Positions 1 through 14,546 of a DNA stretch of 15,284 bases are shown here, one piece after another. A model generated the notes under the pieces. The model saw only the letters and a list, made by a program, of their open reading frames with translations. It ran no database searches and was not told where the DNA came from. This DNA is from Naegleria gruberi (Eukaryota). How positions within the stretch are numbered: the stretch's first letter is position 1; the number at the start of each line of letters is the position of its first letter. A program made the translations under genes and the position numbers. Location of the stretch: NCBI GenBank assembly GCA_000004985.1, contig GG738980.1; one strand, written 5' to 3'.

Positions 1-256
1 TAATACTCAATAGCATAAGGGTCATCCATTGAAATATTGAATGCAGTAATAAACCATAAGAAACCATTATAGTTTCTAGTGTAATTACTTGAAGGTTTCT
101 TCCTTAATCGAAACCAACATCCCTAAATCTCTGGTTTGAAGTATAAGTTTCCATCCAGATGAGCAATTATGAACGTCGTTCCTTCGAATTTGTTCCATAA
201 TTCGGATAATGGTTTGATTAAAAGCATCCTTGAGAAACAGATAGGTACATTATGTC

Positions 257-744
257 GTCCAAAATACAAATTGTTGGTCCAGAAACATTTTGGACGAACA
301 TGTCCATTCAAGATAAATAATACGGCCCAAACGTATTTTGCTTACTGATTATTGGACGCCCAGAAAATCTCTGGACCAACACGTCCATTTTGAACGTTCA
401 ACATCAATTTGCTAGCCCACCCTTAAACAAACAGGCCAGCAACATTTTGTTTGTGCTTTTAATGATGCTCGAAAGATTCAATTCAAGAGATGTTGAGGAC
501 AAATTCAAGAAAAAAAATTCTCCAGCAACAAATCCAACAAAGAAATGACAATAAAAACAGGAGAAGTGGAGTTTCATTGATCATTTCCACTTATTAGGTA
601 TTTAATTGTGATTTTTCAATGATTTACTCATTAAAAACTCATAAACAAACTTTTTGGACAAATCTTAATTTTACCTTAACAAGTTTTTGGACATCCAAAA
701 TCAATTTGTACGTCCTTGCTTATTTTGCTTGTTCAGTCCAAAAT
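257..744. repeat. Cluster of the 8-mer GTCCAAAA and its reverse complement TTTTGGAC.
   Basis: Perfect copies: GTCCAAAA at 257..264 and 736..743; TTTTGGAC at 288..295, 652..659 and 685..692. A 7/8 copy TCCAAAAT is at 694..701. Pairs 257..265/287..295 (9-bp arms, 21-nt spacer) and 685..691/694..700 (7-bp arms, 2-nt spacer) form inverted repeats. Five perfect copies in under 500 bp, against an expectation of about 0.02. Confidence 0.9.
292..391. repeat. Imperfect 19-bp direct repeat (ggacGaacaTgtccattCa at 292..310; ggacCaacaCgtccattTt at 373..391). Each copy contains a GGAC-N6-GTCC mini-palindrome.
   Basis: Hand alignment gives 16 of 19 identical positions. Both copies are embedded in 'ttgg.cc.gaaa' contexts (274..296 and 352..378). 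Confidence 0.7.
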
Positions 745-2392
745 GTACCTATTTGTTAAAATCATCCTTCTTGTGATACTTTTTCTCTTCTTTAATAGCT
801 TTAAGAGTAGAGGCCACCAAATCGAGGAGCTCCATTCTGGAATTACAAATGTCGCTATTGATCTGGATTTGATAAGATGAATGAGAGCTTGACTGATCAA
901 TCCTATTGGAGGAACACAATAACTCACTAGTTCTTTTTCCCAAAGACTTTTGAACGCGTCGTTCTCTTTCCATGAATTGAATACAAGGGTAGTTGCCGAA
1001 CTCGTTGTTGCAAATCTGTCCACATGGTGTATTCCAAATTCTTGGTTGACTAATTCGATTAGTTCCTTGGTGGATCCCCAATCCATCAATCGACTCAACC
1101 TGTCTGCTAGGAAATTCTGTTTGGATGGGATGTAAATCACTTTGCAAATCCACCAATTTCTTCTCATTAGAATCTTTGAGATGTCTCTTGCTATCTTTGC
1201 GAGATCGTCTTTTGATCCATAACCCTTCTTTAGATATGCCACGGCTACCATGTTGTCTACTCTCAATTCGAAATTTGTGAAATCTGGATAAAGATTTAAT
1301 TCGTCTGCTTGTTTGAAATAAAGCAGTAAGGCTCTTAGTTCCTTGACATTGATGTGCTCTTCTCCATTGAACTTTCCAACAGTAACGATTGAACCTGAGT
1401 GAATGCCGAAACCTTGAGGTGTTGCATCTGAATTCACAATCACTGGGAGAATCCAATCCAATTCGAACGGATGACCATCGTTCTTTTGAATTAACTCCCT
1501 TAGAATCAATAAATCCTTGAATGCGCCTTTGTGAATTTGCATTGATGCGTGCCAACCTCTTCCTGATACTACTGAAACCATGTTCTTTCGAAGACGACAC
1601 ATGAATGGTGAAAGGTACTTGTTGGCAATTGTTAGAAATTCCAACTTTCCTAGGAACTTGGCAACTCTCTTGCATGGAACATAAAGCCGTTTCTGGGAAG
1701 CATTGAGTAGCTCCTCTATGAATTCTAAAGCTGTAATCCTTTTGTCTTCTGGAATTTTTACCAAACCTTGATGAAAGTCTAACAAAACTCCTAGGTATTC
1801 TATTAATTGAGTTGGATTTAAACAACATTTGTCTTTTTGAATGAGGAATCCAAACTCTTCTAAATCCTTTAGAACTATATCTCTGTCTAAGATCAACTGA
1901 TCTTTTGAATGATTTACCACTAAGATATCGTCTAAATAAATGAATACCGAGATTCCTCTTACTCTCCATCTTTGAACTAAGACCTTCATTATCTTGGAGA
2001 ATAATCTTGGAGCAATGTTCAGACCGAATGGTAGGCACTTGTAATGGTAAATCTGGCCGTTGTACCTGAATCCCAATAACTTTCGATCTGTTTCCTTCAC
2101 TGGAACGTGATGATAACCTTTCATCAAATCTATTTTGATTCCTAACATGTCTTTTGATAGAAACTTTAGAGTTTTGTGAATATGATCCATTTTGAATGAG
2201 TCGTTGTTTATACCAGCATTTATGGATCTCAAATCTAGGATTAGACGAAACTGGTCTTTGCCTTTCTTCGGAACCACGTGAATCGGATTTATGACAGTGT
2301 CCTTGTTTCCAATTTCTATAATATTGGTTTTGAGTAAATCTGAGATTTCGCTCTTTAACCATGAATCTTCCTTTTCTGAAAAATGAGATCTT
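733..2392 (-). CDS. pol: Partial pol polyprotein (reverse transcriptase, RNase H and conserved post-RNase H domain) of a DIRS/Ngaro-class retrotransposon. The 5' end is truncated by the N-gap. The stop codon TGA is at 735..733.
   Basis: The ORF-track 'M' at 2277 is actually GTG. I translated upstream codon by codon (2278..2391) and found no stop, so the frame is open into the gap. RT motifs read RPILDLRxLN-like 'FRLILDLRSIN', 'KIDLMKGYHHVPV', 'LPFGLNIAPRLFSKIM', the catalytic 'YLDD' (nt 1938..1927), 'GFLIQKDKC' and 'YLGVLLD'. RNase H motifs read 'DATPQGFG', 'VKELRALL', 'VDNMVAVAYL' and 'NFLADRLSR'. The C-terminal 'VDRFATT..NSWKENDAF..W...YCVPPIGLISQAL.HL......ATFVIPEWSSSIWWPLL' matches the domain that follows RNase H in DIRS-like pols (DLFASR..DAF..W..YAFPPF.LI..VL.K....A.L.AP.WP...WF). 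Confidence 0.85.
749..2392 (-). CDS. Overlapping ORF in the -1 frame relative to pol. It is at least 548 codons long, open into the N-gap, with stop TAG at 751..749. The product is a basic Ser/Arg/Lys/Gln-rich protein of unknown function.
   Basis: The ORF track lists 749..2362 (537 aa). I checked codons 2363..2392 and found no stop, so the frame continues into the gap. It ends 16 nt before the pol stop. There is no recognisable tyrosine-recombinase R..HxxR..Y signature. Long open alternative frames are very unlikely by chance in AT-rich DNA. Confidence 0.3.
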   Translation of the reverse strand, partial: KISFFRKGRFMVKERNLRFTQNQYYRNWKQGHCHKSDSRGSEERQRPVSSNPRFEIHKCWYKQRLIQNGSYSQNSKVSIKRHVRNQNRFDERLSSRSSEGNRSKVIGIQVQRPDLPLQVPTIRSEHCSKIILQDNEGLSSKMESKRNLGIHLFRRYLSGKSFKRSVDLRQRYSSKGFRRVWIPHSKRQMLFKSNSINRIPRSFVRLSSRFGKNSRRQKDYSFRIHRGATQCFPETALCSMQESCQVPRKVGISNNCQQVPFTIHVSSSKEHGFSSIRKRLARINANSQRRIQGFIDSKGVNSKERWSSVRIGLDSPSDCEFRCNTSRFRHSLRFNRYCWKVQWRRAHQCQGTKSLTALFQTSRRIKSLSRFHKFRIESRQHGSRGISKEGLWIKRRSRKDSKRHLKDSNEKKLVDLQSDLHPIQTEFPSRQVESIDGLGIHQGTNRISQPRIWNTPCGQICNNEFGNYPCIQFMERERRVQKSLGKRTSELLCSSNRIDQSSSHSSYQIQINSDICNSRMELLDLVASTLKAIKEEKKYHKKDDFNK

Positions 2393-5300
2393 NNNNNNNN
2401 NNNNNNNNNNNNNNNNNNNNNNNNNNNNNNNNNNNNNNNNNNNNNNNNNNNNNNNNNNNNNNNNNNNNNNNNNNNNNNNNNNNNNNNNNNNNNNNNNNNN
2501 NNNNNNNNNNNNNNNNNNNNNNNNNNNNNNNNNNNNNNNNNNNNNNNNNNNNNNNNNNNNNNNNNNNNNNNNNNNNNNNNNNNNNNNNNNNNNNNNNNNN
2601 NNNNNNNNNNNNNNNNNNNNNNNNNNNNNNNNNNNNNNNNNNNNNNNNNNNNNNNNNNNNNNNNNNNNNNNNNNNNNNNNNNNNNNNNNNNNNNNNNNNN
2701 NNNNNNNNNNNNNNNNNNNNNNNNNNNNNNNNNNNNNNNNNNNNNNNNNNNNNNNNNNNNNNNNNNNNNNNNNNNNNNNNNNNNNNNNNNNNNNNNNNNN
2801 NNNNNNNNNNNNNNNNNNNNNNNNNNNNNNNNNNNNNNNNNNNNNNNNNNNNNNNNNNNNNNNNNNNNNNNNNNNNNNNNNNNNNNNNNNNNNNNNNNNN
2901 NNNNNNNNNNNNNNNNNNNNNNNNNNNNNNNNNNNNNNNNNNNNNNNNNNNNNNNNNNNNNNNNNNNNNNNNNNNNNNNNNNNNNNNNNNNNNNNNNNNN
3001 NNNNNNNNNNNNNNNNNNNNNNNNNNNNNNNNNNNNNNNNNNNNNNNNNNNNNNNNNNNNNNNNNNNNNNNNNNNNNNNNNNNNNNNNNNNNNNNNNNNN
3101 NNNNNNNNNNNNNNNNNNNNNNNNNNNNNNNNNNNNNNNNNNNNNNNNNNNNNNNNNNNNNNNNNNNNNNNNNNNNNNNNNNNNNNNNNNNNNNNNNNNN
3201 NNNNNNNNNNNNNNNNNNNNNNNNNNNNNNNNNNNNNNNNNNNNNNNNNNNNNNNNNNNNNNNNNNNNNNNNNNNNNNNNNNNNNNNNNNNNNNNNNNNN
3301 NNNNNNNNNNNNNNNNNNNNNNNNNNNNNNNNNNNNNNNNNNNNNNNNNNNNNNNNNNNNNNNNNNNNNNNNNNNNNNNNNNNNNNNNNNNNNNNNNNNN
3401 NNNNNNNNNNNNNNNNNNNNNNNNNNNNNNNNNNNNNNNNNNNNNNNNNNNNNNNNNNNNNNNNNNNNNNNNNNNNNNNNNNNNNNNNNNNNNNNNNNNN
3501 NNNNNNNNNNNNNNNNNNNNNNNNNNNNNNNNNNNNNNNNNNNNNNNNNNNNNNNNNNNNNNNNNNNNNNNNNNNNNNNNNNNNNNNNNNNNNNNNNNNN
3601 NNNNNNNNNNNNNNNNNNNNNNNNNNNNNNNNNNNNNNNNNNNNNNNNNNNNNNNNNNNNNNNNNNNNNNNNNNNNNNNNNNNNNNNNNNNNNNNNNNNN
3701 NNNNNNNNNNNNNNNNNNNNNNNNNNNNNNNNNNNNNNNNNNNNNNNNNNNNNNNNNNNNNNNNNNNNNNNNNNNNNNNNNNNNNNNNNNNNNNNNNNNN
3801 NNNNNNNNNNNNNNNNNNNNNNNNNNNNNNNNNNNNNNNNNNNNNNNNNNNNNNNNNNNNNNNNNNNNNNNNNNNNNNNNNNNNNNNNNNNNNNNNNNNN
3901 NNNNNNNNNNNNNNNNNNNNNNNNNNNNNNNNNNNNNNNNNNNNNNNNNNNNNNNNNNNNNNNNNNNNNNNNNNNNNNNNNNNNNNNNNNNNNNNNNNNN
4001 NNNNNNNNNNNNNNNNNNNNNNNNNNNNNNNNNNNNNNNNNNNNNNNNNNNNNNNNNNNNNNNNNNNNNNNNNNNNNNNNNNNNNNNNNNNNNNNNNNNN
4101 NNNNNNNNNNNNNNNNNNNNNNNNNNNNNNNNNNNNNNNNNNNNNNNNNNNNNNNNNNNNNNNNNNNNNNNNNNNNNNNNNNNNNNNNNNNNNNNNNNNN
4201 NNNNNNNNNNNNNNNNNNNNNNNNNNNNNNNNNNNNNNNNNNNNNNNNNNNNNNNNNNNNNNNNNNNNNNNNNNNNNNNNNNNNNNNNNNNNNNNNNNNN
4301 NNNNNNNNNNNNNNNNNNNNNNNNNNNNNNNNNNNNNNNNNNNNNNNNNNNNNNNNNNNNNNNNNNNNNNNNNNNNNNNNNNNNNNNNNNNNNNNNNNNN
4401 NNNNNNNNNNNNNNNNNNNNNNNNNNNNNNNNNNNNNNNNNNNNNNNNNNNNNNNNNNNNNNNNNNNNNNNNNNNNNNNNNNNNNNNNNNNNNNNNNNNN
4501 NNNNNNNNNNNNNNNNNNNNNNNNNNNNNNNNNNNNNNNNNNNNNNNNNNNNNNNNNNNNNNNNNNNNNNNNNNNNNNNNNNNNNNNNNNNNNNNNNNNN
4601 NNNNNNNNNNNNNNNNNNNNNNNNNNNNNNNNNNNNNNNNNNNNNNNNNNNNNNNNNNNNNNNNNNNNNNNNNNNNNNNNNNNNNNNNNNNNNNNNNNNN
4701 NNNNNNNNNNNNNNNNNNNNNNNNNNNNNNNNNNNNNNNNNNNNNNNNNNNNNNNNNNNNNNNNNNNNNNNNNNNNNNNNNNNNNNNNNNNNNNNNNNNN
4801 NNNNNNNNNNNNNNNNNNNNNNNNNNNNNNNNNNNNNNNNNNNNNNNNNNNNNNNNNNNNNNNNNNNNNNNNNNNNNNNNNNNNNNNNNNNNNNNNNNNN
4901 NNNNNNNNNNNNNNNNNNNNNNNNNNNNNNNNNNNNNNNNNNNNNNNNNNNNNNNNNNNNNNNNNNNNNNNNNNNNNNNNNNNNNNNNNNNNNNNNNNNN
5001 NNNNNNNNNNNNNNNNNNNNNNNNNNNNNNNNNNNNNNNNNNNNNNNNNNNNNNNNNNNNNNNNNNNNNNNNNNNNNNNNNNNNNNNNNNNNNNNNNNNN
5101 NNNNNNNNNNNNNNNNNNNNNNNNNNNNNNNNNNNNNNNNNNNNNNNNNNNNNNNNNNNNNNNNNNNNNNNNNNNNNNNNNNNNNNNNNNNNNNNNNNNN
5201 NNNNNNNNNNNNNNNNNNNNNNNNNNNNNNNNNNNNNNNNNNNNNNNNNNNNNNNNNNNNNNNNNNNNNNNNNNNNNNNNNNNNNNNNNNNNNNNNNNNN

Positions 5301-6803
5301 NNNNNNNNNNNNNNNNNNNNNNNNNNNNNNNNNNNNNNNNNNNNNNNNNNNNNNNNNNNNNNNNNNNNNNNNNNNNNNNNNNNNNNNNNNNNNNNNNNNN
5401 NNNNNNNNNNNNNNNNNNNNNNNNNNNNNNNNNNNNNNNNNNNNNNNNNNNNNNNNNNNNNNNNNNNNNNNNNNNNNNNNNNNNNNNNNNNNNNNNNNNN
5501 NNNNNNNNNNNNNNNNNNNNNNNNNNNNNNNNNNNNNNNNNNNNNNNNNNNNNNNNNNNNNNNNNNNNNNNNNNNNNNNNNNNNNNNNNNNNNNNNNNNN
5601 NNNNNNNNNNNNNNNNNNNNNNNNNNNNNNNNNNNNNNNNNNNNNNNNNNNNNNNNNNNNNNNNNNNNNNNNNNNNNNNNNNNNNNNNNNNNNNNNNNNN
5701 NNNNNNNNNNNNNNNNNNNNNNNNNNNNNNNNNNNNNNNNNNNNNNNNNNNNNNNNNNNNNNNNNNNNNNNNNNNNNNNNNNNNNNNNNNNNNNNNNNNN
5801 NNNNNNNNNNNNNNNNNNNNNNNNNNNNNNNNNNNNNNNNNNNNNNNNNNNNNNNNNNNNNNNNNNNNNNNNNNNNNNNNNNNNNNNNNNNNNNNNNNNN
5901 NNNNNNNNNNNNNNNNNNNNNNNNNNNNNNNNNNNNNNNNNNNNNNNNNNNNNNNNNNNNNNNNNNNNNNNNNNNNNNNNNNNNNNNNNNNNNNNNNNNN
6001 NNNNNNNNNNNNNNNNNNNNNNNNNNNNNNNNNNNNNNNNNNNNNNNNNNNNNNNNNNNNNNNNNNNNNNNNNNNNNNNNNNNNNNNNNNNNNNNNNNNN
6101 NNNNNNNNNNNNNNNNNNNNNNNNNNNNNNNNNNNNNNNNNNNNNNNNNNNNNNNNNNNNNNNNNNNNNNNNNNNNNNNNNNNNNNNNNNNNNNNNNNNN
6201 NNNNNNNNNNNNNNNNNNNNNNNNNNNNNNNNNNNNNNNNNNNNNNNNNNNNNNNNNNNNNNNNNNNNNNNNNNNNNNNNNNNNNNNNNNNNNNNNNNNN
6301 NNNNNNNNNNNNNNNNNNNNNNNNNNNNNNNNNNNNNNNNNNNNNNNNNNNNNNNNNNNNNNNNNNNNNNNNNNNNNNNNNNNNNNNNNNNNNNNNNNNN
6401 NNNNNNNNNNNNNNNNNNNNNNNNNNNNNNNNNNNNNNNNNNNNNNNNNNNNNNNNNNNNNNNNNNNNNNNNNNNNNNNNNNNNNNNNNNNNNNNNNNNN
6501 NNNNNNNNNNNNNNNNNNNNNNNNNNNNNNNNNNNNNNNNNNNNNNNNNNNNNNNNNNNNNNNNNNNNNNNNNNNNNNNNNNNNNNNNNNNNNNNNNNNN
6601 NNNNNNNNNNNNNNNNNNNNNNNNNNNNNNNNNNNNNNNNNNNNNNNNNNNNNNNNNNNNNNNNNNNNNNNNNNNNNNNNNNNNNNNNNNNNNNNNNNNN
6701 NNNNNNNNNNNNNNNNNNNNNNNNNNNNNNNNNNNNNNNNNNNNNNNNNNNNNNNNNNNNNNNNNNNNNNNNNNNNNNNNNNNNNNNNNNNNNNNNNNNN
6801 NNN
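2393..6803. other. Run of 4,411 N (assembly gap or masked region).
   Basis: Literal n characters. The six-frame ORFs 2361..6872 and 2383..6876 are artefacts of translating N as X. Confidence 1.
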
Positions 6804-8370: not shown

Positions 8371-8454
8371 GAATTGTAAAGTTTTTGGCAGCTATTGTAG
8401 TAGTTCTAACCTGAATTGTAAAGTTTTTGGCAGCTATTGTAGTAGTTCAAACAC
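8371..8454. repeat. Two-copy tandem duplication of a 42-bp unit (39/42 identical). Its 36-bp core gaattgtaaagtttttggcagctattgtagtagttc is perfect in both copies (8371..8406 and 8413..8448).
   Basis: Read directly. The unit length is a multiple of 3, and the minus-strand open frame reads through both copies. Confidence 0.95.
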
Positions 8455-8879
8455 CAAGCAAAGCGAATATCTCCAACATTCGTCAAAGAGTTTCAGCAAG
8501 CAAATCTTCAACTTCTACCTACAAGTCAGGTTACATCCCAGTAACTGACAATGGTAGCTCAGCTTCACTCCCCTCTGTGGTTGACCCAACAAGCAAAACC
8601 TTGGATAACAATCAAGCTGGTTCTGAAAAGAACCTTGATGCTATTTTCAACGCCATCACTTCTTTGGGTGAGAGAATAAAGCATCTCGAAGCTGTTCCTC
8701 CTGTTCTGCAACAAGCTAATCAACTTGATGAAGACCCTGATGAGGAATCCGCTGATGAGGATTTCACTGGTAAACATTGGGGTCTAACTACTATCAAGGA
8801 GATTAGACGTAACTACGAAGTTGGTGATAGACTATCTGTTATAGGCGATAAAAACTCGCACGAAGACCCAGGCAGTTAA
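8415..8879 (+). CDS. Hypothetical ATG-less ORF (exon or gene fragment) of 154 codons with stop TAA at 8877..8879.
   Basis: The frame is open from the TGA at 8412..8414. The track start at 8427 is TTG, and there is no in-frame ATG anywhere in the ORF. It translates to ..AAIVVVQTPSKANISNIRQRVSASKSS..LDAIFNAITSLGERIKHLEAVPPVLQQANQLDEDPDEESADEDFTGKHWGLTTIKEIRRNYEVGDRLSVIGDKNSHEDPGS, which is acidic and Ser-rich and unrecognised. A candidate 3' splice acceptor tttttggcag sits at 8424..8433 inside the repeat. Confidence 0.35.
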   Translation: MVKFLAAIVVVQTPSKANISNIRQRVSASKSSTSTYKSGYIPVTDNGSSASLPSVVDPTSKTLDNNQAGSEKNLDAIFNAITSLGERIKHLEAVPPVLQQANQLDEDPDEESADEDFTGKHWGLTTIKEIRRNYEVGDRLSVIGDKNSHEDPGS

Positions 8880-9476: not shown

Positions 9477-12400
9477 NNNNNNNNNNNNNNNNNNNNNNNN
9501 NNNNNNNNNNNNNNNNNNNNNNNNNNNNNNNNNNNNNNNNNNNNNNNNNNNNNNNNNNNNNNNNNNNNNNNNNNNNNNNNNNNNNNNNNNNNNNNNNNNN
9601 NNNNNNNNNNNNNNNNNNNNNNNNNNNNNNNNNNNNNNNNNNNNNNNNNNNNNNNNNNNNNNNNNNNNNNNNNNNNNNNNNNNNNNNNNNNNNNNNNNNN
9701 NNNNNNNNNNNNNNNNNNNNNNNNNNNNNNNNNNNNNNNNNNNNNNNNNNNNNNNNNNNNNNNNNNNNNNNNNNNNNNNNNNNNNNNNNNNNNNNNNNNN
9801 NNNNNNNNNNNNNNNNNNNNNNNNNNNNNNNNNNNNNNNNNNNNNNNNNNNNNNNNNNNNNNNNNNNNNNNNNNNNNNNNNNNNNNNNNNNNNNNNNNNN
9901 NNNNNNNNNNNNNNNNNNNNNNNNNNNNNNNNNNNNNNNNNNNNNNNNNNNNNNNNNNNNNNNNNNNNNNNNNNNNNNNNNNNNNNNNNNNNNNNNNNNN
10001 NNNNNNNNNNNNNNNNNNNNNNNNNNNNNNNNNNNNNNNNNNNNNNNNNNNNNNNNNNNNNNNNNNNNNNNNNNNNNNNNNNNNNNNNNNNNNNNNNNNN
10101 NNNNNNNNNNNNNNNNNNNNNNNNNNNNNNNNNNNNNNNNNNNNNNNNNNNNNNNNNNNNNNNNNNNNNNNNNNNNNNNNNNNNNNNNNNNNNNNNNNNN
10201 NNNNNNNNNNNNNNNNNNNNNNNNNNNNNNNNNNNNNNNNNNNNNNNNNNNNNNNNNNNNNNNNNNNNNNNNNNNNNNNNNNNNNNNNNNNNNNNNNNNN
10301 NNNNNNNNNNNNNNNNNNNNNNNNNNNNNNNNNNNNNNNNNNNNNNNNNNNNNNNNNNNNNNNNNNNNNNNNNNNNNNNNNNNNNNNNNNNNNNNNNNNN
10401 NNNNNNNNNNNNNNNNNNNNNNNNNNNNNNNNNNNNNNNNNNNNNNNNNNNNNNNNNNNNNNNNNNNNNNNNNNNNNNNNNNNNNNNNNNNNNNNNNNNN
10501 NNNNNNNNNNNNNNNNNNNNNNNNNNNNNNNNNNNNNNNNNNNNNNNNNNNNNNNNNNNNNNNNNNNNNNNNNNNNNNNNNNNNNNNNNNNNNNNNNNNN
10601 NNNNNNNNNNNNNNNNNNNNNNNNNNNNNNNNNNNNNNNNNNNNNNNNNNNNNNNNNNNNNNNNNNNNNNNNNNNNNNNNNNNNNNNNNNNNNNNNNNNN
10701 NNNNNNNNNNNNNNNNNNNNNNNNNNNNNNNNNNNNNNNNNNNNNNNNNNNNNNNNNNNNNNNNNNNNNNNNNNNNNNNNNNNNNNNNNNNNNNNNNNNN
10801 NNNNNNNNNNNNNNNNNNNNNNNNNNNNNNNNNNNNNNNNNNNNNNNNNNNNNNNNNNNNNNNNNNNNNNNNNNNNNNNNNNNNNNNNNNNNNNNNNNNN
10901 NNNNNNNNNNNNNNNNNNNNNNNNNNNNNNNNNNNNNNNNNNNNNNNNNNNNNNNNNNNNNNNNNNNNNNNNNNNNNNNNNNNNNNNNNNNNNNNNNNNN
11001 NNNNNNNNNNNNNNNNNNNNNNNNNNNNNNNNNNNNNNNNNNNNNNNNNNNNNNNNNNNNNNNNNNNNNNNNNNNNNNNNNNNNNNNNNNNNNNNNNNNN
11101 NNNNNNNNNNNNNNNNNNNNNNNNNNNNNNNNNNNNNNNNNNNNNNNNNNNNNNNNNNNNNNNNNNNNNNNNNNNNNNNNNNNNNNNNNNNNNNNNNNNN
11201 NNNNNNNNNNNNNNNNNNNNNNNNNNNNNNNNNNNNNNNNNNNNNNNNNNNNNNNNNNNNNNNNNNNNNNNNNNNNNNNNNNNNNNNNNNNNNNNNNNNN
11301 NNNNNNNNNNNNNNNNNNNNNNNNNNNNNNNNNNNNNNNNNNNNNNNNNNNNNNNNNNNNNNNNNNNNNNNNNNNNNNNNNNNNNNNNNNNNNNNNNNNN
11401 NNNNNNNNNNNNNNNNNNNNNNNNNNNNNNNNNNNNNNNNNNNNNNNNNNNNNNNNNNNNNNNNNNNNNNNNNNNNNNNNNNNNNNNNNNNNNNNNNNNN
11501 NNNNNNNNNNNNNNNNNNNNNNNNNNNNNNNNNNNNNNNNNNNNNNNNNNNNNNNNNNNNNNNNNNNNNNNNNNNNNNNNNNNNNNNNNNNNNNNNNNNN
11601 NNNNNNNNNNNNNNNNNNNNNNNNNNNNNNNNNNNNNNNNNNNNNNNNNNNNNNNNNNNNNNNNNNNNNNNNNNNNNNNNNNNNNNNNNNNNNNNNNNNN
11701 NNNNNNNNNNNNNNNNNNNNNNNNNNNNNNNNNNNNNNNNNNNNNNNNNNNNNNNNNNNNNNNNNNNNNNNNNNNNNNNNNNNNNNNNNNNNNNNNNNNN
11801 NNNNNNNNNNNNNNNNNNNNNNNNNNNNNNNNNNNNNNNNNNNNNNNNNNNNNNNNNNNNNNNNNNNNNNNNNNNNNNNNNNNNNNNNNNNNNNNNNNNN
11901 NNNNNNNNNNNNNNNNNNNNNNNNNNNNNNNNNNNNNNNNNNNNNNNNNNNNNNNNNNNNNNNNNNNNNNNNNNNNNNNNNNNNNNNNNNNNNNNNNNNN
12001 NNNNNNNNNNNNNNNNNNNNNNNNNNNNNNNNNNNNNNNNNNNNNNNNNNNNNNNNNNNNNNNNNNNNNNNNNNNNNNNNNNNNNNNNNNNNNNNNNNNN
12101 NNNNNNNNNNNNNNNNNNNNNNNNNNNNNNNNNNNNNNNNNNNNNNNNNNNNNNNNNNNNNNNNNNNNNNNNNNNNNNNNNNNNNNNNNNNNNNNNNNNN
12201 NNNNNNNNNNNNNNNNNNNNNNNNNNNNNNNNNNNNNNNNNNNNNNNNNNNNNNNNNNNNNNNNNNNNNNNNNNNNNNNNNNNNNNNNNNNNNNNNNNNN
12301 NNNNNNNNNNNNNNNNNNNNNNNNNNNNNNNNNNNNNNNNNNNNNNNNNNNNNNNNNNNNNNNNNNNNNNNNNNNNNNNNNNNNNNNNNNNNNNNNNNNN

Positions 12401-13805
12401 NNNNNNNNNNNNNNNNNNNNNNNNNNNNNNNNNNNNNNNNNNNNNNNNNNNNNNNNNNNNNNNNNNNNNNNNNNNNNNNNNNNNNNNNNNNNNNNNNNNN
12501 NNNNNNNNNNNNNNNNNNNNNNNNNNNNNNNNNNNNNNNNNNNNNNNNNNNNNNNNNNNNNNNNNNNNNNNNNNNNNNNNNNNNNNNNNNNNNNNNNNNN
12601 NNNNNNNNNNNNNNNNNNNNNNNNNNNNNNNNNNNNNNNNNNNNNNNNNNNNNNNNNNNNNNNNNNNNNNNNNNNNNNNNNNNNNNNNNNNNNNNNNNNN
12701 NNNNNNNNNNNNNNNNNNNNNNNNNNNNNNNNNNNNNNNNNNNNNNNNNNNNNNNNNNNNNNNNNNNNNNNNNNNNNNNNNNNNNNNNNNNNNNNNNNNN
12801 NNNNNNNNNNNNNNNNNNNNNNNNNNNNNNNNNNNNNNNNNNNNNNNNNNNNNNNNNNNNNNNNNNNNNNNNNNNNNNNNNNNNNNNNNNNNNNNNNNNN
12901 NNNNNNNNNNNNNNNNNNNNNNNNNNNNNNNNNNNNNNNNNNNNNNNNNNNNNNNNNNNNNNNNNNNNNNNNNNNNNNNNNNNNNNNNNNNNNNNNNNNN
13001 NNNNNNNNNNNNNNNNNNNNNNNNNNNNNNNNNNNNNNNNNNNNNNNNNNNNNNNNNNNNNNNNNNNNNNNNNNNNNNNNNNNNNNNNNNNNNNNNNNNN
13101 NNNNNNNNNNNNNNNNNNNNNNNNNNNNNNNNNNNNNNNNNNNNNNNNNNNNNNNNNNNNNNNNNNNNNNNNNNNNNNNNNNNNNNNNNNNNNNNNNNNN
13201 NNNNNNNNNNNNNNNNNNNNNNNNNNNNNNNNNNNNNNNNNNNNNNNNNNNNNNNNNNNNNNNNNNNNNNNNNNNNNNNNNNNNNNNNNNNNNNNNNNNN
13301 NNNNNNNNNNNNNNNNNNNNNNNNNNNNNNNNNNNNNNNNNNNNNNNNNNNNNNNNNNNNNNNNNNNNNNNNNNNNNNNNNNNNNNNNNNNNNNNNNNNN
13401 NNNNNNNNNNNNNNNNNNNNNNNNNNNNNNNNNNNNNNNNNNNNNNNNNNNNNNNNNNNNNNNNNNNNNNNNNNNNNNNNNNNNNNNNNNNNNNNNNNNN
13501 NNNNNNNNNNNNNNNNNNNNNNNNNNNNNNNNNNNNNNNNNNNNNNNNNNNNNNNNNNNNNNNNNNNNNNNNNNNNNNNNNNNNNNNNNNNNNNNNNNNN
13601 NNNNNNNNNNNNNNNNNNNNNNNNNNNNNNNNNNNNNNNNNNNNNNNNNNNNNNNNNNNNNNNNNNNNNNNNNNNNNNNNNNNNNNNNNNNNNNNNNNNN
13701 NNNNNNNNNNNNNNNNNNNNNNNNNNNNNNNNNNNNNNNNNNNNNNNNNNNNNNNNNNNNNNNNNNNNNNNNNNNNNNNNNNNNNNNNNNNNNNNNNNNN
13801 NNNNN
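9477..13805. other. Run of 4,329 N (assembly gap or masked region).
   Basis: Literal n characters. ORFs 9380..13849, 9462..13889 and 9473..13813 are artefacts of translating N as X. Confidence 1.
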
Positions 13806-14546
13806 TTTTTCAATGGTTTCTACTGCTTTTACTTTTTCAGCAGATTTAATGGCCTTCTCTTGTTGTTTGGAGGTGATTTGGTCAAGTGAACCTCCTGATT
13901 TGTAGCTGTTAGAGAAGTTTTCAGCTGCTTCAAAGCCATTTTTAATGCCCATTCGAATACAGACTAGATTTAACTCAGAAATATTCTGAATAAATTCAAA
14001 TCCTTGAAGAATAAGCGGTAAATCAAGGGTATCACTCTCTCTCAAACGCTTGCAGATTTGAGAGATGATAAAAGAGTTTGTTAAAAGTAAAGAATAACCT
14101 TTACTTTTAATATCTTTTATACCAGATGAATCTGGAATGGGAGTGTCTACTTCTTTTCTGAACAACAATTCAAGAGCAGCCATTCTATTCTTGAATTCCA
14201 AGTTGTCAGCGTATGGAGCATTGGCTGTTTCGAATAGAAGAGAAACAGCTTCTTCCAACGGCAAATCTTCTTTCAATGACTCACCAAACATTCTTTGGTA
14301 AGAGTTGATGACGTGGTTTTTAAACCAATCATCTGGTTCATCAGCAACTCTTGCTCTTTTACCAGAAACCTCTTCAGATGGGTTGGACTCAAACAATTCC
14401 ATCGAAGAAGCGAGAGCAGAAGCACCTTGTGAACCAACCTTGGCGGAAGGAGTTAGAACAATGACTCGTTGCTCGCTACCTGCAGAAGGTGAGCTAAGGT
14501 CTTTCGTTTTCTTGTTGTTCTTTGGTGTAGTTGGTGTTGGGGCCAT
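13806..14546 (-). CDS. N-terminal 247 codons of a larger protein-coding gene, with ATG at 14546..14544. It continues into the N-gap and the product is not recognised.
   Basis: A genuine ATG, verified as cat at 14544..14546 on the plus strand, sits in an A-rich context (aaaaaattatcacaATGG, A at -3). The uninterrupted 741-nt ORF has protein-like composition: MAPTPTTPKNNKKTKDLSSPSAGSEQRVIVLTPSAKVGSQGAS..DWFKNHVINSYQRMFGESLKEDLPLEEAVSLLFETANAPYADNLEFKNRMAALELLFRKEVDTPIPD..LILQGFEFIQNISELNLVCIRMGIKNGFEAAENF... A TATA-like aaatataag lies about 45 nt upstream on the minus strand (near 14590). Confidence 0.7.

Follow-up and report, generated by a model that had tools for sequence, protein, structure and literature searches.

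Selection for openness alone in a pol-overlapping frame of a DIRS-type retrotransposon from Naegleria gruberi

Here we analysed a stretch of 15,284 nt from contig GG738980.1 of the Naegleria gruberi assembly GCA_000004985.1 (hereafter the window), which almost certainly holds a disrupted tyrosine-recombinase retrotransposon of the DIRS type in which a second, stop-free frame lying across the pol gene represents the upstream portion, overlapping pol, of the recombinase open reading frame (ORF). Comparison of this frame, here called X, with its counterparts in related elements revealed that selection acts on the absence of stops alone, the amino acids of X being such as pol would impose. The best explanation as a whole, to which the sequence comparisons lead us to give an even chance, is that X may be a translated conduit of the recombinase ORF that is entered by readthrough of the gag stop codon.

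Frame X (752..2392, minus strand) is read one base 5' of the pol frame and contains no stop where 35.9 are expected. Translation of the minus strand from 2392 to 749 gives 547 sense codons and then a TAG at 751..749, as an earlier note made from the sequence alone had described, and the third frame over the pol region has about 90 stops. A stop arises in X wherever a T-ending pol codon precedes a codon starting with AA, AG or GA; pol has 137 of the former and 171 of the latter, and the junction is seen once against about 42 expected, so that the avoidance reported in that note extends over the full length. Synonymous choice shifts at the risky junctions (GAT 17:0 versus GAC 8:9; ATT 25:0; TTT 9:0), a synonym that does not end in T standing wherever a T-ending one would give TAA, TAG or TGA in X. 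When synonymous codons were shuffled within the element-derived part (2391..752; n = 2000), the mean number of stops in X was 35.9 and the minimum 23, and none of the 2000 shuffles reached the zero observed. The probability of zero stops in the window, conditioned on the observed counts of T|A and T|G junctions, is about 1e-10. The openness of X in the window is not due to chance, and the selection-like constraint that had been proposed for it is upheld by these shuffled controls, which fail to keep the frame open.

A protein search with pol identified relatives on contigs L001–L009, one of them 99% identical and a series of others 45–54% identical; a further relative, P0002, is 77% identical. 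Seven members of the family (L001–L007) were compared, six of which are diverged, with 45–54% pol identity to the window's family. The near-identical relative, L001, is colinear with the window (L001 1419–3060 against window 2392–752) and 99.6% identical to it. In all six diverged relatives the -1 frame across pol is free of stops, where the shuffles predict 23–37 for the window and its relatives, and the +1 frame across pol of the relatives has 58–70. Internal controls behaved differently from pol: the -1 frames of the gag and recombinase ORFs of the same elements have 23–62 stops, near the shuffle expectation, and that of a host ORF in the window has 27 against 28.8 expected. The avoidance of stops is specific to the pol segment. 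Three further DIRS-type elements (L090, L092 and L094; about 30% pol identity), which have gag, a pol with RT (reverse transcriptase) and Dam domains, and a recombinase but a short overlap or none, carry 44–66 stops, matching expectation. A distant element, L095, has an overlapping ORF of 1130 codons with no stops against 12.8 expected, and L011 and L012, found in a metagenome scan, also have a long -1 frame; a scan of viral contigs for further relatives returned none. The long overlap varies by lineage, because L090, L092 and L094 carry the expected stops while L095, L011 and L012 have a long open frame. That composition, codon-pair bias or chance alone accounts for the openness of X is a proposal already refuted by these controls, and we attach practically no probability to it. 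T|A junctions are indeed depleted generally in the window pol, as that proposal would have it, but T|GA junctions are absent from it although there is no shortage of T|GC, T|GG or T|GT, the junction-conditioned probabilities are 1e-8 to 1e-13, and the gag, recombinase and host ORFs, as well as the pol genes of the non-overlapping DIRS elements, have stops at the expected rate.

The identity of X is apparent from those relatives that are intact downstream. In L002, L005 and L007, a single frame of 920–936 codons runs from the gag stop across pol and into a PF00589 recombinase domain at its C-terminus. In L002 the domain lies past pol within that ORF (E=3e-10); the match in L001 is weak, and in L005 and L007 the domain is present in the called genes. 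The X frame also leads into the recombinase in L001, where R...HSLR...Y motifs lie downstream of pol. The earlier note was correct in finding no recombinase catalytic signature within the stretch; the motifs were missed in the window because they lie past pol, an insertion and the window edge, that is, beyond window position 1. It was also correct in citing DIRS1 as a precedent. Its two suggestions for the nature of X did not survive: X runs uninterrupted into PF00589 in L002, L005 and L007, which speaks against an undescribed overlapping gene, and the presence of a real recombinase domain downstream in the same ORF speaks against an extremely divergent recombinase within X.

Accordingly named, X (about 620 codons, -1 to pol and spanning all of it, in a compact element whose repeat unit in the near-identical relative is about 4.0 kb) corresponds to what has been documented in DIRS1-like elements as the "long pol/YR ORF overlap", where YR denotes the tyrosine recombinase, and is no new gene. 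DIRS1-like elements with such a long overlap, in which the catalytic domain lies in the non-overlapping 3' end, have been described (PMC3266345, PMC6681497), and long overlaps were reported in half of the 28 DIRS1-like elements surveyed by Piednoel et al., in agreement with the differences between lineages seen here. The N. gruberi elements in the PMC3266345 survey were uncertain, being too degraded to place. Intact DIRS-type elements evidently exist in Naegleria relatives, earlier surveys having had degraded copies only. The resemblance to the DIRS1-like long-overlap elements (Dictyostelium DIRS-1 ORF II/ORF III; RoDIRS1, PblDIRS1 and MciDIRS1 of the Mucoromycotina; several fish and frog elements) extends to the content of gag, pol and YR, to a YR ORF that begins far upstream over pol in another frame, and to a compact size of about 4.0–4.4 kb (PMC3266345), whereas the host, Naegleria, is a heterolobosean.

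We then considered whether the product of X is itself under selection, using a null in which synonymous pol codons were resampled for each element with its own codon usage and with stops in X forbidden. Averaged over pairs, X sequences are 29.6% identical where the null gives 26.1% (+3.5 points), and for the non-coding +1 frame the figures are 32.0% and 29.2% (+2.8 points). As the two excesses are similar, they reflect residual shared ancestry rather than constraint on X. A scan in blocks of 60 columns gave the same picture, X tracking the control throughout except over the last 60 or so pol codons, where there is extra conservation at the nucleotide level in both frames. The net charge, hydropathy and content of serine, arginine, lysine and glutamine (S/R/K/Q) of X all equal those of the null. 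The basic, S/R/K/Q-rich character of the product, with its isoelectric point (pI) of 10.8, arises because an AT-rich pol is being read one base too early. Neither a Pfam scan of the X product nor a word-indexed search of 5.8 billion proteins with it gave a match, and an exhaustive HMMER search returned 10 hits only, all of them X frames or pol-to-X chimeras of related elements. Single-sequence AlphaFold2 predictions had no discriminating power, as the pLDDT (predicted local distance difference test) score was 32.4 for X and 33.9 for a genuine pol fragment. By identity, block scan and composition, no purifying selection on X amino acids beyond that imposed by pol was detectable; selection acts on the absence of stops alone.

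These results bear directly on the possibility that X encodes a functional protein of its own, be it a highly diverged recombinase or a basic protein that binds nucleic acids or acts like a chaperone, which we now consider very unlikely. The ORF is kept over deep divergence and its product is basic, and disordered products are frequent among overlapping genes that arise de novo, all of which would suit such a protein. Against this, the amino acids of X show no excess conservation over the non-coding-frame control, charge and composition equal those of the resampled nulls, no Pfam family is matched, and the ORF has its real recombinase domain further downstream. The nucleic-acid-binding or chaperone-like protein envisaged in the earlier note is thus not borne out, and the Pfam scan found neither a recombinase nor any other family within X. 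In overprinted viral genes, a second frame is likewise held open in an older gene, with an odd composition and a probably disordered product, but X differs from these in showing no detectable selection at the amino-acid level and in being continuous with a bona fide enzyme domain. X behaves as an extension of an ORF and not as a gene.

How ribosomes might enter X is suggested by its junction with gag. In the window's family X shares the phase of gag, and each of the seven elements has precisely one stop between the two. That stop is TGA followed by C in all seven, with AA before it in six, whereas pol ends in TGA followed by G or A, in TAG or in TAA. UGA-C with upstream adenines is a classic leaky stop context. 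From the gag stop to the first ATG of X the seven elements have a total of 366 codons, in which 15.9 stops are expected and none is seen (the product of the per-element probabilities of zero stops is about 3e-8). The first in-frame ATG lies 13–42 codons after the gag stop in six of the elements and at codon 185 in L007. That X is free of stops before any ATG argues for entry from gag and against an internal AUG start. In the other long-overlap lineages L095, L011 and L012, X likewise extends upstream as far as the 3' end of gag. Conserved pol sequence (GGRL...W) begins 5–15 codons past the gag stop in the +1 phase. The openness of pol upstream of the gag stop is not significant, the composition of the Asn-rich gag tail explaining it. 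As conserved pol sequence thus starts right after the gag stop and its upstream extension is compositional, pol is probably reached by a +1 shift at or near that stop. The last 50 codons of gag in L001–L007 form Asn/Gly-rich low-complexity tails that have no zinc knuckle and no Pfam match.

Potentially, then, the gag UGA is a point at which translation takes three courses. Termination there would yield Gag, a +1 shift at or next to it would yield Gag-Pol, and readthrough of A-A-UGA-C would yield a Gag-X-recombinase fusion, in which ribosomes would translate uninterrupted through X to reach the recombinase domain and X would form an unconstrained, probably disordered bridge. Stops have been purged from X while its amino acids are free, and therefore it is uninterrupted translation through X that appears to have been selected. 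We consider it reasonably probable that X is a translated conduit to the recombinase, and only a little short of an even chance that entry into this conduit is by readthrough of the stop codon. A broader proposal is more speculative and, in our estimation, rather unlikely as a whole: A-A-UGA-C may be a two-way recoding hub, allowing a +1 shift into pol and readthrough into the stop-purged conduit, with a Gag-linker-recombinase fusion being made for packaging, and the long overlap may in general be a footprint of gag-coupled translation of the recombinase. We found no mention of the in-phase gag-UGA-C-X layout in the accessible DIRS literature, although an earlier description is possible. A variant genetic code or selenocysteine at the UGA was rejected, as TGA terminates pol ORFs within the family and none of the frames requires a reassigned codon.

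Several observations weigh against a conduit entered by readthrough. Stops in other copies of the family, which the earlier note regarded as evidence against a maintained frame, were found in the near-identical L001, though the six diverged relatives have none. The pol of L001 is intact, but its X is interrupted by two stops, at 1749 and 2106 (window 2062 and 1705), both of them TAA codons resulting from C-to-T changes that are synonymous in pol (TAC>TAT and CTC>CTT); these changes are two of the four substitutions that separate L001 from the window. In addition, L003 is partly degraded. RNAalifold found no conserved pairs (0 pairs) after the UGA in the seven sequences (-15 to +125). The motif AATGAC can also be read as Asn-Asp in the pol frame or as a +1 frameshift site, and because of these other readings the C after the UGA is not independent evidence of readthrough. 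X is out of the gag frame in L095 and L011, and therefore readthrough is not general for long-overlap DIRS elements. For the match to the gag frame the prior is one half, and the members of the family share it by descent; moreover, an unconstrained linker of 620 residues is unusual for a functional fusion protein. Lastly, an ATG in the X frame overlaps the pol stop (AATGA) in five of the seven elements (L002, at 3061–3064; L003–L005; L007), a layout typical of termination-reinitiation and compatible with a recombinase that is made without X.

Two other routes into X have to be set beside readthrough. X may extend the N-terminus of the recombinase at length without any fusion to Gag. Translation would then begin within X, either on an AUG or near-cognate codon or through reinitiation once ribosomes have terminated at the gag stop. 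The ATGs that lie shortly past the gag stop in six of the seven elements could serve such a start, the literature treats ORF2, the recombinase ORF, as a separate ORF, and some entry other than readthrough must exist in L095 and L011, where X and gag are out of phase. However, such a start leaves unexplained the lack of stops between the gag stop and the first ATG in all seven elements, above all in L007 with its 185 codons, and the many AUGs upstream in gag would presumably intercept scanning ribosomes. On balance we regard an unfused extension as unlikely. We hold it to be more unlikely still that X is kept open for a -1 shift from pol to the recombinase, with a product composed of Gag, part of Pol, part of X and YR. 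The -1 position of X relative to pol would suit such a shift, as would the short-overlap elements L090 and L092, whose recombinase ORFs are also -1 with an overlap of 66–72 nt, and pol-to-X chimeras show that such products stay open; yet the last 200 nt of pol have no conserved slippery heptamer, and one site near the end of pol would not need 620 open codons reaching back to the gag stop. The chimeras in question, P0119 and P0121, are database proteins that have the RT in the pol frame followed by 280–400 residues in the X frame. They are frameshifted copies that are still long ORFs because X is open, and are a source of chimeric annotations.

Readthrough at the gag stop, the route that we favor, has counterparts at leaky contexts in other systems (alphavirus nsP3/nsP4; the UGA-CGG/CUA type of plant viruses; the UAG of murine leukaemia virus gag-pol). 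As in these, a single stop lies between a structural and an enzymatic ORF, and the UGA-C context with adenines at -1 and -2 is the same. Unlike in these systems, no downstream stimulatory structure was found here, and the extension would consist of 620 codons that run over another gene and are free of sequence constraint. For the +1 shift into pol, a possible parallel is yeast OAZ1 (antizyme), in which +1 frameshifting occurs at a slow UGA-C stop (GCG-UGA-C). The pol of the Naegleria family is likewise +1 to gag, with conserved sequence right after the UGA-C, but different codons precede the stop (GAA, CAA, AAA, AGA) and no stimulator came to light; the link to OAZ1 is purely inferred.

The copy in the window is dead, having been inactivated twice, by an insertion and by an indel. 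X is truncated at 2392 by an assembly gap and at about 752–757 by an insertion of ~520 bp with terminal inverted repeats (232..757) that is absent from L001, in which position 3060 joins directly to the sequence of window 231. The inverted repeats are 19 nt long (AACAnATAGGTACATT...; arms at 236–254 and 739–757), the interior is rich in TTTTGGAC/GTCCAAAA-like motifs, and the flanks bear an imperfect duplication, AAGGATG[A/C]TTTT. The insertion, which looks non-autonomous, sits within the 3' end of the DIRS pol, and no second copy of it was found in the window or the related loci compared. Both the X stop at 749–751 and the apparent pol stop at 733–735 lie within the insertion or at its edge. 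The ORF end seen at 749–751 is secondary, because L001, at 99.6% identity, does not have the insertion. The limits of the frame given in the earlier note, a gap edge and a TAG, are therefore as described but are not biological boundaries, the stops at the 3' side belonging to the insertion and the 5' edge being a run of Ns.

Beyond the insertion, the true 3' end of pol is found at 123..231 (minus strand), where its last 35 codons and a TAG at 125..123 are 100% identical to L001 pol residues 687–721. X also continues past the insertion (85..231, minus strand; translation KDAFNQ...DLGMLVSIKEETFK) and ends at a TAA at 87..85. The ATG at 120..118 in this continuation corresponds to the start assigned to the recombinase by the gene caller in L001. 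The TAA at 87..85 results from a small indel of the window copy (85–90; AC-T in L001 became GTAA), where L001 reads on. The indel frameshifts the recombinase ORF 12 codons past its ATG, so that only the first 12 or so codons of the recombinase part are in frame within the window. The frameshifted rest of the recombinase N-terminal coding sequence (1..84, minus strand) matches L001 up to 3271 and runs off the window.

The pol frame of the window is stop-free on the minus strand from 2391 to a TGA at 735..733, and its element-derived fragment (752..2391, minus strand) has an RT domain and weak RNase H-like and Dam-like methyltransferase matches in Pfam. The RT domain (about 1786–2274; RVT_1, E=3e-26) is followed on the same strand by the RNase H-like match (about 1090–1398; RVT_3, E=0.015, under the curated cut-off) and the Dam-like methyltransferase match (about 799–1080; PF05869, E=7e-4, 19.8 bits with a cut-off of 28.1 bits); PF05869 is also a precomputed match for the pol relatives P0007 and P0008. 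This combination is the pol architecture of DIRS-type retrotransposons. A Dam-like methyltransferase domain following RNase H sets DIRS1-like and PAT-like elements apart from Ngaro and VIPER. The pol of the DIRS order is Gypsy-like in its RT and RNase H and lacks a protease and a DDE integrase; neither family was matched by Pfam in pol or in gag.

The element may be DIRS1-like or PAT-like, the termini of the window copy being lost to the N gap and the window edge. DIRS1-like elements have inverted terminal repeats and an internal complementary region, the circle junction being 3 bp long. In L001 and L002 only short inverted repeats were found in the spacer between the recombinase stop and gag (L001 4042–4066/4119–4143; L002 3991–4020/4085–4114). 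PAT-like elements, the sister group of the DIRS1-like elements, carry RT, RNase H and methyltransferase domains and a YR, and possess split direct repeats. In some contigs (L001 61–306/4079–4324; L008 3–1028; L009) the sequence wraps around, the recombinase stop being followed after about 130–140 nt by gag, and the repeat unit of L001 is 4018 bp. Split direct repeats, if collapsed in assembly, would give this wrap, and tandem or circular copies would do so equally; the arrangement fits all three.

Elsewhere in the window there are two assembly gaps of similar length, N runs at 2393–6803 (4411 bases) and 9477–13805 (4329 bases). Each borders a truncated element-like ORF and is near the size of one DIRS unit, which suggests that the runs are unassembled repeats. 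The ORF that runs into the second, 4.3-kb gap (13806–14546, minus strand; 247 codons) is unrelated to pol, has no Pfam match and agrees fully (100%) with a "predicted protein" of N. gruberi (P0110), which marks the host; there is also a paralogue at 86% (P0111), together with metagenomic relatives. Possibly this ORF is the first of a different repeated element. A Ser-rich ORF of 150 codons (8427–8879) without a Pfam match has at its start a tandem duplication of 42 bp (8371–8452), made up of two copies of 40 nt that are 98% identical. Rfam and tRNA scans of the window gave no matches.

The overlap of pol and recombinase in DIRS elements has been catalogued for decades, and we found no functional explanation for it in the accessible literature. 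The Naegleria family is an unusually clean case in which to seek one, as it is AT-rich, so that frequent stops are expected, has seven diverged members, and has non-overlapping relatives that serve as natural negative controls. What our analyses add is the determination that only openness is selected, the natural controls by which this can be recognised, and a testable route by which X would be entered, namely readthrough of the gag UGA-C. For annotation, the lesson is that frames such as X should be joined to the downstream recombinase gene of their element and not be reported as novel genes.

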